A DNA stretch of 18,504 bases from assembly GCA_027053075.1 (NCBI GenBank), contig JALUEE010000016.1, forward strand, positions 1 through 18,504, written 5' to 3'. The translations under genes were made by a program, and so were the position numbers. The notes below the pieces were generated by a model that did no database searches, was not told where the DNA came from, and saw nothing but the letters and a program-made list of their open reading frames with translations. Source of the DNA: a candidate division WOR-3 bacterium (GTDB lineage Bacteria > Hydrothermota > Hydrothermia > B15-G9 > WFZT01). This document shows positions 3,250 through 18,491 of the stretch, one piece after another. How positions within the stretch are numbered: the stretch's first letter is position 1; each line of letters opens with the position of its first letter.

Positions 3250-4100
3250 AATTTTAAGCTCCATCCTGGCCCTCTGAGGAATCCCGCGATTACAGTCAAA
3301 ATCAAATACCAGGCAAGGATTATCCAAAAGACTATTTTAATCACTTTAGCACGAGGATAGAGAGATAAGACCACGAGACTTATTAATGGGAATACCACAC
3401 CACCAAGCCATGGATAGATCTCGTAAACAAGCTCTTGAATGCCCAGAAAGAACCATGGGCCCTTCACCGGATCAAGAGGATAATCTACAGGTTTTCCTAT
3501 CCCGGGATTGATCACAAGAGAAAGCAAGGTTACCCATAGGAAAACATATCCCAGCTTCTTGAAATCCGGTAAAACAAGCCTAACATGCCAGAAAAACAGG
3601 AAAAAGAAGGGTAATGTAAAGGTAAGCGCATGGTTGGTAAATACGGTGTAAAGACCTGATAAATCTATATTGCCAAACAGGGCCCTCGAAAATCCTGAGC
3701 CAATTAGAGGAATGGTTTTTAACAGGCTGGAAGCTACATCCATTGCAAAAATTCCCTCTTTACTTCCTCTCAAAATATATCCTGTAAAGACAACCACAAA
3801 TGAGAGCGGAAAAAATATCGTAACCTCCCAGAACCAGCGAGAAGCTGGATACTTTATGTTTTTTCTCATGTACTCCCATTTGTGAAGAAATAAAGAAATG
3901 AGGAAAAATTGGGCCGAGAAGTAGTGTATTCTTCTGAAAAACTCACCCCAGGGAACAACCCCGGAAATAATTTCAAGGGATTTGTAGGCGTTGAACGGAT
4001 TGTATTTAAAGGCAATCACAACCCCGCTGATAACTGCAATTAAAAAGGAATGAAAGCTAATATCTCCCCATGAAATTCTATCATTCCACTGCATTGCCAT
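3246..4100 (-). CDS. Cytochrome b/b6-family membrane protein (di-heme)
   Basis: Four heme-ligand His: RRIHY...LFLHK (13 residues between) and TNHAL...FWHVR (14 between). Also FTGYIL, TIPLIG, and PVKGPWFFLGIQEL at the PEWY-equivalent position. Confidence 0.85.
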   Translation of the reverse strand: MAMQWNDRISWGDISFHSFLIAVISGVVIAFKYNPFNAYKSLEIISGVVPWGEFFRRIHYFSAQFFLISLFLHKWEYMRKNIKYPASRWFWEVTIFFPLSFVVVFTGYILRGSKEGIFAMDVASSLLKTIPLIGSGFSRALFGNIDLSGLYTVFTNHALTFTLPFFFLFFWHVRLVLPDFKKLGYVFLWVTLLSLVINPGIGKPVDYPLDPVKGPWFFLGIQELVYEIYPWLGGVVFPLISLVVLSLYPRAKVIKIVFWIILAWYLILTVIAGFLRGPGWSLKF

Positions 4101-4161
4101 ATTTTAAACCATACACACATTCAGCCTGAAGAGAGCTCGTCCGAAAATTACCCCCTTTCTA

Positions 4162-4196
4162 TCCTCTTCCCACGCACAAAGTGCGTGGGAGGAGGA
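4162..4196. repeat. REP-like G/C-rich palindrome (target of MITE copy 1)
   Basis: TCCTCTTCCCACGCAC-AAA-GTGCGTGGGAGGAGGA: 16-bp stem with one T/G pair. Its G-rich tail is interrupted by the MITE. Confidence 0.8.
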
Positions 4197-4203
4197 GTAA
4201 GGT

Positions 4204-4419
4204 CTGACGTCACCCACGAATTTCTGGAAAATAACACCTCATCCCTTACCACAACTACAAAAAGGTGTACTACGCTCAATATTTGAACACTCTCTTTATA
4301 CGGTATAAACGAATATATCCTTCCGGTAAAAATTGTTGATTTAGTGCGAAAAATTGAATTTCCCGCCCAGATTGCGTTGTATAAATATACATGAAAAGCA
4401 AAAACATGGGTGATGTCAG
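4204..4419 (+). mobile_element. 216-bp MITE, copy 1
   Basis: TIRs CTGACGTCACCCACG / CTGACATCACCCATG (13/15); perfect 10-bp TSD GGAGTAAGGT at 4194-4203 and 4420-4429; 215/216 identical to the reverse complement of 18075-18290. Confidence 0.93.
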
Positions 4420-4677
4420 GGAGTAAGGTGGGGGGCAAATTTTTCATTAAAAATTAAAGGTTTTGAAATTTTTCGAACAGGCTCGCCTGAAGAGATTACT
4501 TTTTAAGTTCTTTGTCCAAATTTAGATAAATCCGAAGATGCAACTACCTCACAATTCCCGATACTGGCAGCGACAGGCAGATTCCATCTCCATAATCATT
4601 CTGAAGGTCGAGAACATAGATATACTCACCTGAATTCGTTGTGTTTTGATTGAGGACAACATTAAAATCTACCCACA

Positions 4678-6087
4678 ATGAAGAAAGCCTCTATCATCCT
4701 TTTAATCCTTTCGGTTTTGCTACTAAAAATGAATATCCAGATTTCTGTGAAATTGGCACTTTTTGCAATTTTTTTGCTTGCCCTGTCTGCCGAAGACCTC
4801 TGTTCATCCTGGCCATTAATAACGCTTGTTTTCTTTATTATTTTAACAGGTCTCAAGCTGCTTCAATTCGATTTTTATATATCCACGGGATTTGACCTCG
4901 GCATAAGAGCGAGCATTTTGCATAACCTTGCCTATCATGGAAGACTTTTTGATAGCTTGAATCAAACGGGCGGATTCTCCGGTCACATATGGCCGATTGC
5001 TTACCCTCTCTTCCTGCTCATGTATATCTGGGATGATCCGAGGATTCTGCTCATTACCCAGAGTTTTTTCATCTCCCTTATCATTCCTGCCGCATGCCTT
5101 TTATTCAAGGCCTTAAATCTGGAAAAACGGCATAGAACAATCCTTCTGAGTATTGTCATATTTAACATTTACCTCCACCGTGTAAGTGGATTTGATTTTC
5201 ACCCTGAGGCACTTGGAATCTCTATTTTTATTCTTGGAATTTATGCCCTGGAGAAGAGAACGTATGGAATATTTTATTTATCCCTTCTCCTGACCCTGAT
5301 TTTGAAAGAAGATGTGACCATCGCGTGGATATCTCTGGGATTCTACTACTGGTTTAAAAATAAGAAGGATGCGTTGAGAATATTTATACCCACAGTTATT
5401 TATGGAATACTGGCCGCAATACTCGTGCTCAAATACGTAAATCTTGGAATGATGGCAGGGGCAAATTACTCCGGTAATTTTAGCATAACTTCAAGAATAA
5501 AACCTGTTACCGAATTTTTCCTGAGTTTTGCTTTTCTTCCTATTCTTACCGTAAAAGGCATAGTTTCGTATATTCTCCCTCTTTTTGAGCATATTTTGAG
5601 CTCTAAACCTCTTCATTATCAGCTTAAATGCCAGTACTCAGCTATGTTGATCCCATCTGTACTCCTTGCCTCTATCATTGCACTGAAAAGGGTAAAATTT
5701 AAAAGGAATTTGCTCATGCTCCTTGTTATTGTTGCCGGTCTTTTCTCTGTAGATGAAGGATTAGTGGAAAGGTACATTGCTTATGACCGAATTGATTCAA
5801 AAAGAAAGGCTTATCTTGATGAGATTATTAATGAATTGCCGCAGGATGAAGTGGTAAGTGCCGGGAATCATATAACCCCACACCTTGTTACAACGCACAG
5901 GGTGTATCAATTCCCGTTGATTAAAGATGCAGACCTGATTGTAATAGACACCACATGGCACGATTTTACGCCACTTACAGCAGATTCAGGAATGAAATTT
6001 TTATCTCAGGTGATCAAAAGCGGGAATTTCAAGGTTGTCTCCGATAGTCTTGGCGTTCTCATTTTAAGAAAATCTTCTTATCGATAG
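4678..6087 (+). CDS. DUF2079-like polytopic membrane protein (putative GT-C-fold glycosyltransferase-like)
   Basis: Many TM segments; motifs GFDLGI, GHIWP, LLITQ, DFHPEAL, LKED, HYQ...QYS, and a soluble C-terminus (LPQDEVVSA...PHL). Start uncertain because no clear SD is present. Confidence 0.75.
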   Translation: MKKASIILLILSVLLLKMNIQISVKLALFAIFLLALSAEDLCSSWPLITLVFFIILTGLKLLQFDFYISTGFDLGIRASILHNLAYHGRLFDSLNQTGGFSGHIWPIAYPLFLLMYIWDDPRILLITQSFFISLIIPAACLLFKALNLEKRHRTILLSIVIFNIYLHRVSGFDFHPEALGISIFILGIYALEKRTYGIFYLSLLLTLILKEDVTIAWISLGFYYWFKNKKDALRIFIPTVIYGILAAILVLKYVNLGMMAGANYSGNFSITSRIKPVTEFFLSFAFLPILTVKGIVSYILPLFEHILSSKPLHYQLKCQYSAMLIPSVLLASIIALKRVKFKRNLLMLLVIVAGLFSVDEGLVERYIAYDRIDSKRKAYLDEIINELPQDEVVSAGNHITPHLVTTHRVYQFPLIKDADLIVIDTTWHDFTPLTADSGMKFLSQVIKSGNFKVVSDSLGVLILRKSSYR

Positions 6088-7833: not shown

Positions 7834-8232
7834 ATGGTTGAGAAAACTTTAATGATAATCAAGCCAGATGCCACGGCGAAACGTGCAATCGGTGATATAA
7901 TTTCTATGGTTGAGGATAAGTTTGAAATAGCCGGGATCATAATGAAAAAGCTCACTGTTGAAGAGGCACGTGAATTCTACGCAGTTCATAAGGGAAAGCC
8001 TTTCTACGATTCACTTGTAGAATTTATGACATCTGGCCCCGTGGTAGGTCTCCTTCTTCAGGGAGAAGATGCCATTAAAAGGCTGAGAGAAGTAGTTGGA
8101 GCCACCGATCCATCAAAGGCACGCCCTGGAACAATAAGAGCGAAGTTTGGAACGGATATACAGAGGAACGCCGTGCACGCGTCTGATTCACCTGAGTCCG
8201 CAGCTTACGAAATTCCGTTTTTCTTTAAATAG
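7834..8232 (+). CDS. ndk: Nucleoside diphosphate kinase
   Basis: TLMIIKPDA, FYAVHKGKPFY, MTSGPV, GATDP...PGTIR, catalytic NAVHASDS. Confidence 0.98.
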   Translation: MVEKTLMIIKPDATAKRAIGDIISMVEDKFEIAGIIMKKLTVEEAREFYAVHKGKPFYDSLVEFMTSGPVVGLLLQGEDAIKRLREVVGATDPSKARPGTIRAKFGTDIQRNAVHASDSPESAAYEIPFFFK

Positions 8233-8237
8233 AAAAT

Positions 8238-8274
8238 GATTTTTGGGGGCGCCCTTCGGGCGCCCCCAAAAATC
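8238..8274. terminator. Perfect 17-bp inverted repeat after ndk (terminator or transcript-stabilising hairpin)
   Basis: GATTTTTGGGGGCGCCC-TTC-GGGCGCCCCCAAAAATC, 5 nt after the stop codon. No 3' U-tract on either strand. Confidence 0.55.
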
Positions 8275-8382
8275 CTCTCCTAAAATTTTCTCCTAAAAAA
8301 CCTAAAAAAATCCAAATTCCTTAACGTGGTTGGAAATTCATTCTTTATATCTACACTTGCGAGATAACTGGATATAACAAGT

Positions 8383-8458
8383 TCCCTCCCCGCTTGCTAA
8401 GCAAGTGGGGGAGGGTCTTGGGAGGGGGTATTCCGCTTGAAAATTAGAAATTTAGGAT
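8383..8458. repeat. REP-like palindrome plus conserved tail, homologous to 17972-18055
   Basis: CCCTCCCCGCTTGC-TAA-GCAAGTGGGGGAGGG followed by GGGAGGGGGTATTCCGCTTGAAAATTAGAAATTTAGGAT, compared with GGGAGGGGGCATTCCGCTTAAAAAATAAAAAAATTTAAGAT at 18015-18055. Confidence 0.8.
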
Positions 8459-8869: not shown

Positions 8870-8913
8870 AAAAAATTGATGGGGGACTTTCCCTTCGGGA
8901 AAGCCCCCCATCA
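8870..8913 (-). terminator. Intrinsic terminator of the radical SAM gene
   Basis: Minus strand reads TGATGGGGGGCTTTCCC-GAA-GGGAAAGTCCCCCATCA-ATTTTTT. The single mismatch is a G-U pair on this strand only, and the hairpin starts 6 nt after the stop. Confidence 0.85.
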
Positions 8914-8919
8914 TGTTTA

Positions 8920-13168: not shown

Positions 13169-13195
13169 AGGGCGGCGCCCTTTGGGCGCCGCCCT
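13169..13195 (+). terminator. Hairpin after nrdJ
   Basis: AGGGCGGCGCCC-TTT-GGGCGCCGCCCT, a perfect 12-bp stem 6 nt after the stop; weak U-tract. Confidence 0.65.
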
Positions 13196-17971: not shown

Positions 17972-18055
17972 TCCCTCCCCCCCAGGCTTTGCCTGTGGGG
18001 GGGAGGGAATTAAAGGGAGGGGGCATTCCGCTTAAAAAATAAAAAAATTTAAGAT
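17972..18055. repeat. REP-like palindrome plus conserved tail, homologous to 8383-8458
   Basis: TCCCTCCCCCCCAGGC-TTT-GCCTGTGGGGGGGAGGGA followed by GGGAGGGGGCATTCCGCTT. Confidence 0.8.
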
Positions 18056-18074
18056 GTAGCCCTCACCCCACCCC

Positions 18075-18290
18075 CTGACATCACCCATGTTTTTGCTTTT
18101 CATGTATATTTATACAACGCAATCTGGGCGGGAAATTCAATTTTTCGCACTAAATCAACAATTTTTACCGGAAGGATATATTCGTTTATACCGTATAAAG
18201 AGAGTGTTCAAATATTGAGCGTAGTACACCTTTTTGTAGTCGTGGTAAGGGATGAGGTGTTATTTTCCAGAAATTCGTGGGTGACGTCAG
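18075..18290 (-). mobile_element. 216-bp MITE, copy 2 (inverted relative to copy 1)
   Basis: Same TIRs; perfect 10-bp TSD ACCCCACCCC at 18065-18074 and 18291-18300; one difference from copy 1 (18241 versus 4253). Confidence 0.93.
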
Positions 18291-18297
18291 ACCCCAC

Positions 18298-18322
18298 CCC
18301 TTTCCCACTTCGTGGGAGAGGG
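18298..18322. repeat. REP-like palindrome (target of MITE copy 2)
   Basis: CCCTTTCCCAC-TTC-GTGGGAGAGGG. The reconstructed empty site is GCCCTCACCCCACCCCTTTCCCACTTCGTGGGAGAGGGAGATT. Confidence 0.8.
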
Positions 18323-18491
18323 AGATTAGTTGATTTTGGATTAAAAATTTGATAGTTGTGGACATCTCGCTTGAGCCAGCATGAAAACTTTGTCAGAAAG
18401 CCCAAAATCCCCCTCCTCCTATAATGTTTGTTGTTATTTATTATGGTTATCACCCACAATATAGAGAAAAACTTTAGAGGAGGTGGAATGA

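Follow-up and report, generated by a model that had tools for sequence, protein, structure and literature searches.

A MITE probably mobilised in trans by an IS4-family element appears to favour the G-tracts of BoxC-like repeats in a candidate division WOR-3 genome

How did an 18,504-nt stretch of DNA (the window) from a candidate division WOR-3 bacterium come to hold two nearly identical 216-bp elements, and what kind of site received them? Copy 1 (4204–4419) lies on the + strand, strand being taken from the orientation of the transposase of the partner insertion sequence (IS) described below, and copy 2 (18075–18290) lies on the − strand. Copy 1 and the reverse complement of copy 2 agree at 215/216 nt, the sole difference being A/G at element position 50, and their BLASTN match (E ∼1e-108) is far beyond chance. 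As the initial annotation claimed, each copy is bordered by its own exact 10-bp target-site duplication: GGAGTAAGGT for copy 1 (4194–4203 and 4420–4429, + strand) and ACCCCACCCC for copy 2 (18065–18074 and 18291–18300, + strand). The terminal inverted repeats are complementary at 12/14 and 16/20 positions. Copy 1 is flanked by a divergent cytochrome-b-like gene on one side and a DUF2079 membrane-protein gene on the other, and copy 2 lies downstream of a class II Asp/Asn-type tRNA-synthetase gene. When the G-rich flanks are included, the match between the copies stretches to 256 nt at 95% identity, because both sit in a shared kind of target; homology otherwise ends at the element ends. A segmental duplication was considered and rejected, since the flanks are unrelated outside the target repeat and the duplications of the two copies differ. 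Six-frame translation of the element reveals no transposase coding capacity, one frame being open by chance over 72 codons. The 216-bp element is a prokaryotic MITE: it is short, non-coding and multi-copy, it has terminal inverted repeats, and it has a partner with the same ends.

Searched with BLASTN and scanned for the end motif, the genome from which the window comes (G000; 2.44 Mb in 114 contigs, numbered C) yielded 23 full-length copies of 214–216 bp and four more ends at contig breaks, in line with the high copy number predicted earlier. The duplication is an exact 10 bp in 17 copies, 10 bp with one mismatch in one, 11 bp in one and 12 bp in two; the remaining two have none. Ten of the 23, both window copies included, are mutually 0–2 bases apart, and among the remainder, where differences reach 31 bases, four copies form another tight cluster. 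The MITE appears to have spread in more than one burst, the latest of them recent, and the near-identical copies suggest present-day activity. Among 40 other genomes searched, one of the same genus (G004) contains the MITE, with 11 matches at 87–96% identity, and another (G001) has a 42-nt match to its end. Nine full copies were read in G004, and of these seven have exact 10-bp duplications, one has a duplication with one mismatch and one has none.

In G004 the locus orthologous to site 1 is empty, an outcome for which the initial annotation had proposed looking. Both flanks align there at 92–93%, the copy 1 duplication occurs once, and a surrounding outer MITE (see below) is intact and free of insert. 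The earlier proposal of independent transpositions is supported by this empty site and by the individual 10–12-bp duplications of 21/23 copies (mismatched in one). A contig from one read run (X3) joins 4135 to 4544, which points to a related strain that lacks both the element and the hairpin around it, the join not falling at the exact ends. The region corresponding to copy 2 in G004 has an uninterrupted BoxC-type motif after the tRNA-synthetase gene, in rearranged DNA of uncertain orthology. Contigs from four read runs, with short-sided joints dropped as likely other repeat copies, included none bridging an empty site 2.

A few copies stand in altered surroundings. At C47:83865–84079, five extra bases identical to the last five of the element (GTCAG) stand between the copy and the resumed 10-bp repeat; they may be the footprint of a second copy, excised or tandem. 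At C40:294–509 the copy is flanked by both outer arms of a single hairpin MITE that lacks its central hairpin; loss of the DNA between two insertions, one in each arm, or else an adjacent deletion is the likely cause, and C85:33907 with C65:124 probably represents the same arrangement. Two copies (C11:18483 and C11:19181) lie inside one integrase-type transposase gene, which we take from its motifs to be IS3/IS481-like, and locus L009 of G004 is an independent insertion in a similar gene.

Copy 1 is itself nested in a second MITE, a feature that the initial annotation overlooked along with the non-random targets, which lie in the purine tails of BoxC-like hairpins. This outer, hairpin-carrying element (4133–4484, no strand assigned) measures ∼126 bp without its insert, has ends GAGC..GTTCGAAAA and is bordered by the 9-bp duplication GCCTGAAGA (4124–4132 and 4485–4493, + strand). 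It is unrelated to the 216-bp MITE, its core is the hairpin of site 1, and it has 44 long matches in G000. Outer-MITE-type ends are found on both sides within 330 nt for 9/23 copies, compared to 27/2000 random positions, and the nested size is 350–352 bp in five of the nine. Also present in G000 are elements of 300–370 bp with GAG..TTCGAAAA ends and mostly 9-bp duplications like those of the outer MITE, each carrying two BoxC-like motifs (C21:45931–46283, C33:137358–137710, C102:72–423, C35:12371–12741, C19:461–834, C23:2870–3173, C47:30351–30646 and C67:10366–10661). Many duplications of outer-MITE-type elements are bordered by TCAA/TTGA. BoxC-like motifs in this genome travel as MITE cargo, and in the nested arrangement one MITE uses the cargo of another as a safe site.

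An IS4-like DDE transposase, encoded elsewhere and bounded by the same ends, had been proposed as the source of mobility, and G000 does encode an IS4-family transposase of this kind. An end scan located a longer element with MITE-like termini (seven right ends and four left ends, nearly all in contig-end stubs), and exact 10-bp duplications flank 3/3 insertions whose left and right ends could be paired. The G000 assembly has no uninterrupted copy: an IS630 element splits one, and the remainder exist as stubs at contig ends. The two pieces of the split copy, on C85 and C40, sum to 1186 bp, giving a partner IS of ∼1.19 kb, and the IS630 element sits between them at a duplicated TA. Since the DNA on the far side of IS630 in C40 is unrelated, the C85/C40 junction must be mis-assembled or rearranged. 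The IS630-family element (C40:1227–2315) has two ORFs, is multi-copy and lies at TA, one copy being that inside the partner IS; stubs of it occur in C85, C79, C69, C106, C36, C27, C37 and C97.

The left end of copy 1 (4204–4231, + strand) is identical to that of the partner IS at 23/28 nt, and the right end (4378–4419, − strand), which overlaps a relic of the last codons of the transposase, at 34/42 nt. For the terminal 20 nt, MITE and partner agree at 18–19/20 positions on the left and 20/20 on the right. No alignment to the partner was obtained for the ∼145 nt of the MITE interior (best local score 22–23), and an origin of the MITE by internal deletion of the resident IS was rejected on this ground; it follows that the direct parent was another IS or that the interior has been replaced. 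Mobilisation of the MITE in trans by the partner transposase is likely, judging from the sequence of the ends. A search of G004 (89% complete), which carries the MITE, returned no transposase match, a result that speaks against the pairing.

An intact version of the transposase (P0001, 347 aa) is available in a public collection and shares 99.5% identity with the C85 piece across 211 residues. The IS4 family is characterised by D(60–110)D(100–150)E spacing and a Y(2)R(3)E(6)K signature (PMC2266710, available text), and its members duplicate about one helical turn, as the partner does with its 10 bp. In P0001 the catalytic residues are D89, D153 and E250, with spacers of 63 and 96, the second just below the approximate published range, and the signature is formed by Y243, R246, E250 and K257. 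P0001 and its homologues are encoded by a single ORF without frameshift (346–399 aa). The best-matching family, by far, is NF033591 IS4 (NCBIfam), at 138.8 bits (E 2e-40), and 6/6 clade members score 119–141 bits, all below the 152-bit cut-off, which is a naming threshold and is absent from the family definition in the available text of PMC2266710. A PDB profile search returned nothing significant, and Tn5 transposase was not among the matches listed. Catalytic motifs are altered in a 309-aa homologue in G005 (C39:693–1622, locus L025), and no element ends were recognised around it; its sequence suggests a decayed or possibly domesticated gene.

Placement within the family is less straightforward. 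As tabulated in the available text of PMC2266710, the IS10 subgroup has 5′-CT ends, a length of 1200–1350 bp and a 9-bp direct repeat, and the IS50 subgroup an 8–9-bp repeat, a length of 1350–1550 bp and a Tn5-like transposase. The partner resembles the former in its single-ORF DDE transposase, its YREK signature, its CT- ends (CTGA here) and its length of about 1.2 kb, clade members of 1186–1212 bp falling at or just under the lower edge of the range. Unlike IS10 relatives, however, the MITE makes a 9-bp repeat in 0/23 copies and a 10-bp repeat in 18, and its target is an asymmetric G-tract; the IS50 subgroup is likewise set apart by the 10-bp duplication and ∼1.19-kb length of the partner. 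Of the earlier comparison with IS10 and IS50, then, the CTGA ends hold up and the ∼9-bp duplication does not, as MITE and partner both make 10 bp. Because of this 10-bp duplication, compared to 9 bp in the PMC2266710 table, we keep the partner out of the IS10 subgroup and file it as an IS4-family element that is IS10-like in ends and size, leaving its subgroup unassigned.

Site 1 is a G/C hairpin with a 15-bp stem (4163–4195, + strand), the 3′ arm of which runs into the copy 1 duplication; it is BoxC-like, with 6/24 mismatches to the TM_ECO consensus. Copy 2 splits a BoxC/TM_ECO-type motif (18060–18322, − strand) with 1/24 mismatches and a first loop of 7 nt, compared to 3–6 published, and the duplication at site 2 spans GGG-second loop-GGGN of this motif. 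BoxC/TM_ECO is described as CCCTCNCCC-loop-GGGNGAGGG-N3-GGGNGAGGG (PMC4666352, available text). If the first loop may reach 20 nt and up to four mismatches count as near, the three-block BoxC consensus has 33 exact and 260 near matches in G000, compared to 0 and 0 in a shuffled genome. The BoxC/PIT/TM_ECO intrastrand-triplex motif is the model for the target here and not for the element, and the sites are better called BoxC-like than strict BoxC; the motifs of G000 have longer first loops and variant stems, and many are MITE cargo. Further modules of BoxC-like hairpin plus G-tail, followed by an AT-rich spacer, occur in the window at 17973–18064 and 8385–8450. This hairpin/G-tail/AT-rich mosaic recurs across G000 and in G004, and copy 2 occupies the second module of one pair. 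Elsewhere in the window, strong GC-rich hairpins after or between genes (8230–8282, 13171–13193, 8872–8918 and 1939–1993) are likely terminators or members of a further palindrome family.

Reconstructed empty sites yield a consensus on the purine-rich strand of GGGGA[GG(A/G)(T/A)NN(A/G)GGN]GGGGG, in which the brackets enclose the duplication. A symmetrised target matrix gave no palindromic consensus. The target consensus of IS10 is symmetric and 9 bp long. The available text of PMC10359306 gives no IS10 target consensus. Both orientations of the element relative to the target are used (19 versus 13, p 0.38). At 11/21 reconstructed sites, the best fit to the BoxC consensus is in register (offset −5 to −8, seven or fewer mismatches), and the duplication, which covers GGG-loop-GGGN, has its most frequent start 6 nt inside the first G-stem. 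To describe the hairpin without recourse to a consensus, we scored stems of at least 8 bp whose end falls no more than 8 nt from the start of the duplication. Such a hairpin is present in 18/25 G000 events (22 MITE and 3 IS; C40:294, C47:83865 and unpaired ends left out), compared to 12% of 4000 non-ORF positions (binomial p 6e-12), figures to be read with the caveats that the background comes from a crude ORF mask, that the hairpin rule and the target profile were devised after the G000 sites had been viewed, and that surviving insertions have already been filtered by selection. The stem ends 1–3 nt inside the duplication in 14/18 hairpin-linked events, and 6/7 events in G004 show the hairpin register. 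The seven exceptions in G000 include two insertions within hairpins, one in a G-tract without a 5′ arm and two in the integrase-type IS gene.

Given that 84–94% of high-scoring G-rich non-ORF sites in G000 are hairpin-linked, sequence and structure are inseparable within this genome, and relatives of the transposase in other genomes become informative. A scan of GTDB genomes with an alignment of the transposase (A2) identified such relatives; the same scan with its N-terminal fragment found nothing. The clade is small, with 8 clusters at E ≤ 1e-30 among 1021 matches. Relatives at 47–50% identity, in records titled Balneolaceae, Chitinophagaceae, Thermoanaerobaculaceae and Hyphomicrobiales, have ends CTGACAT(T/C)ACCC and lengths of 1187–1212 bp, and short elements with clade-type ends are present in G001, G005, G274, G275 and G276. 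Relatives at ∼25% identity have different ends, flanks that are not G-tracts and 9-bp duplications in the three cases where a duplication was found. Annotated IS4-family genes among plasmid matches show only ∼25% tblastn identity to the transposase, and matches at this level include an IS4-family element of an E. coli plasmid with CTGA ends, a length of 1325 bp and a 9-bp duplication. An end-motif scan of metagenomes gave mostly chance matches (6 junctions passed the filter among 80 matches listed), and its junctions are excluded from every count.

A target profile trained only on G000 was then compared with the 95th percentile of flank controls. In other phyla (seven genomes), 20/27 junctions exceed this value, as do 19/33 in the same-genus genomes G001, G002, G003 and G005; all pattern matches were kept, probable chance ones too, and both ends of an insertion were counted separately. 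Where the upstream side is readable, a stem is present at 6/13 junctions in other phyla compared to 14/270 controls, and at 5/12 in same-genus genomes compared to 8/320, with the qualification that the genomes are non-independent (five of the seven are related) and that controls include coding DNA. The G-tract tracks the clade more consistently than the hairpin does. This favours a readout of sequence, with the tails of BoxC motifs as its best and commonest match, and an asymmetric G-tract preference appears more likely than recognition of a triplex.

We therefore regard as probable a reading in which a MITE present in at least 23 copies is mobilised in trans by an IS4-family partner, whose preference for G-tracts draws landings to BoxC-like repeats. 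The transposases of IS10 and IS50 move their elements by cut-and-paste, and cut-and-paste transposition is given for the IS4 family as a whole (PMC2266710, available text). By analogy, the partner transposase would bind the shared 28–42-nt ends and move the MITE in trans by cut-and-paste. A symmetric transposase dimer would make a 10-bp staggered cut, so that either orientation could be used, and target choice would read the purine tract of the consensus above, with the hairpin helpful and not required. Landing in abundant non-coding repeats may spare genes and let copies build up, a low-cost strategy.

The same MITE and transposase could instead depend on DNA shape, the enzyme recognising a non-B structure of BoxC (a cruciform, an intrastrand triplex or a distorted hairpin-base junction) and cutting across the second loop. 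The register of 11/21 reconstructed sites described above would fit this, as would the use of both orientations in spite of an asymmetric target, and stems are found at 11/25 testable junctions of other genomes compared to 22/590 controls. Three sites (C21:10743, C27:35946 and C17) lie at or near a hairpin tip and not in the tail, and TM_ECO oligonucleotides form triplexes in vitro; the same source, as far as its available text goes, found a stable triplex neither within duplex DNA nor in vivo (PMC4666352). Site 1 departs from the triplex consensus at 6/24 positions, 14/25 testable junctions in other genomes have no 8-bp stem and yet many of these keep a G-tract, and C50:13976 is a G-tract insertion without a 5′ arm. 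On balance we consider structure readout unlikely. Unlikely too is a broader proposal, that of an undescribed cross-phylum IS10-like clade with CTGACRTYACCC ends, 10-bp duplications and repeated spawning of MITEs, whose transposase would read the BoxC hairpin-triplex and cut across its second loop.

Selection might also have produced the pattern, if the element has little target preference and purifying selection has removed all insertions but those in dispensable repeats and other IS elements. The non-ORF fraction of the genome is small (∼9%, crude mask) and rich in hairpin repeats, as the 12% background attests, and at least three non-hairpin insertions lie in the neutral DNA of transposase-like genes (C11:18483, C11:19181 and L009 of G004). 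The enrichment nonetheless persists against a background of non-ORF positions (18/25 versus 12%), the 14/18 stems ending 1–3 nt into the duplication make a tight register, and selection explains neither the G-rich profile carried to other phyla nor its absence in the ∼25% relatives; we consider this account very improbable. Least credible of all are the ideas that the element works as a structured RNA or a regulatory cassette and reached its sites by another route, or that its copies are assembly artefacts. Its folding does beat that of shuffled sequences (z −3.5 on the minus strand, −2.6 on the plus strand), but the terminal stem is merely the inverted repeat, the covariation term among nine copies is only −0.66 kcal/mol, and change on both sides of a pair is seen in 3/66 pairs. 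An Rfam scan of the window gave no family at the gathering threshold, so the match to a known ncRNA that the initial annotation had named as a counterargument did not materialise, and a promoter and terminator scan of 4050–4700 gave a single weak 9-of-12 promoter-like match, no more than in shuffles. Artefact is excluded by the distinct duplications of the copies, by the second genome that carries the element and by the empty orthologous site.

The preferred reading, a G-tract preference of a trans-acting IS4-family transposase, may be set beside other elements that target extragenic repeats. Targeting of REP sequences has been published for five IS families, and reported cases are ISRm22 (IS4), IS1397, ISKpn1 and ISPsy8 (IS3), and IS621, ISPa11 and ISPpu9 (IS110) (PMC1525189, Tobes & Pareja 2006, available text). 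Shared with these are a fixed insertion point in an abundant extragenic palindromic repeat and the occurrence of hybrid copies without matching duplications. ISRm22, according to the same text, has a symmetric target consensus, enters it at the palindrome axis and makes 6-bp repeats, in contrast to the MITE, which inserts off-axis in the purine tail, duplicates 10 bp, uses a BoxC-type and not a classical REP sequence, and consists mostly of non-autonomous copies. In E. coli, BoxC has no link to transposons in the available text of PMC4666352 (Holder et al. 2015), where instability around the motif is left unexplained; our literature search, which reached few subscription journals, found no published report of IS insertion into BoxC. 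What the case adds is the clade-wide asymmetric target preference, the MITEs and IS4 transposases being ordinary in themselves. It delineates a small clade, spread across phyla, in which ends like those of IS10 go with a 10-bp stagger and an asymmetric target, and for which more than 80 junctions have been mapped; it also ties a DDE transposase to the BoxC/triplex-motif repeats that the available part of that source reports as unlinked to mobile elements (PMC4666352). If structure readout were true, BoxC repeats would be general transposon landing pads, there would be a mechanism for instability in their vicinity, and the enzyme could serve in vivo as a probe of triplex or cruciform DNA. The question of sequence versus structure is within reach of one transposase and a few synthetic targets.

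Two other repeats were seen in passing. At C13:126, C40:28285, C58:3807 and C88:2707 of G000, a short palindrome, a ribosome-binding site and a near-identical gene start recur together, probably as part of a multi-copy gene or mobile element. Summed read depth is very high at the right end of the window (18410–18480), which suggests another high-copy repeat there.
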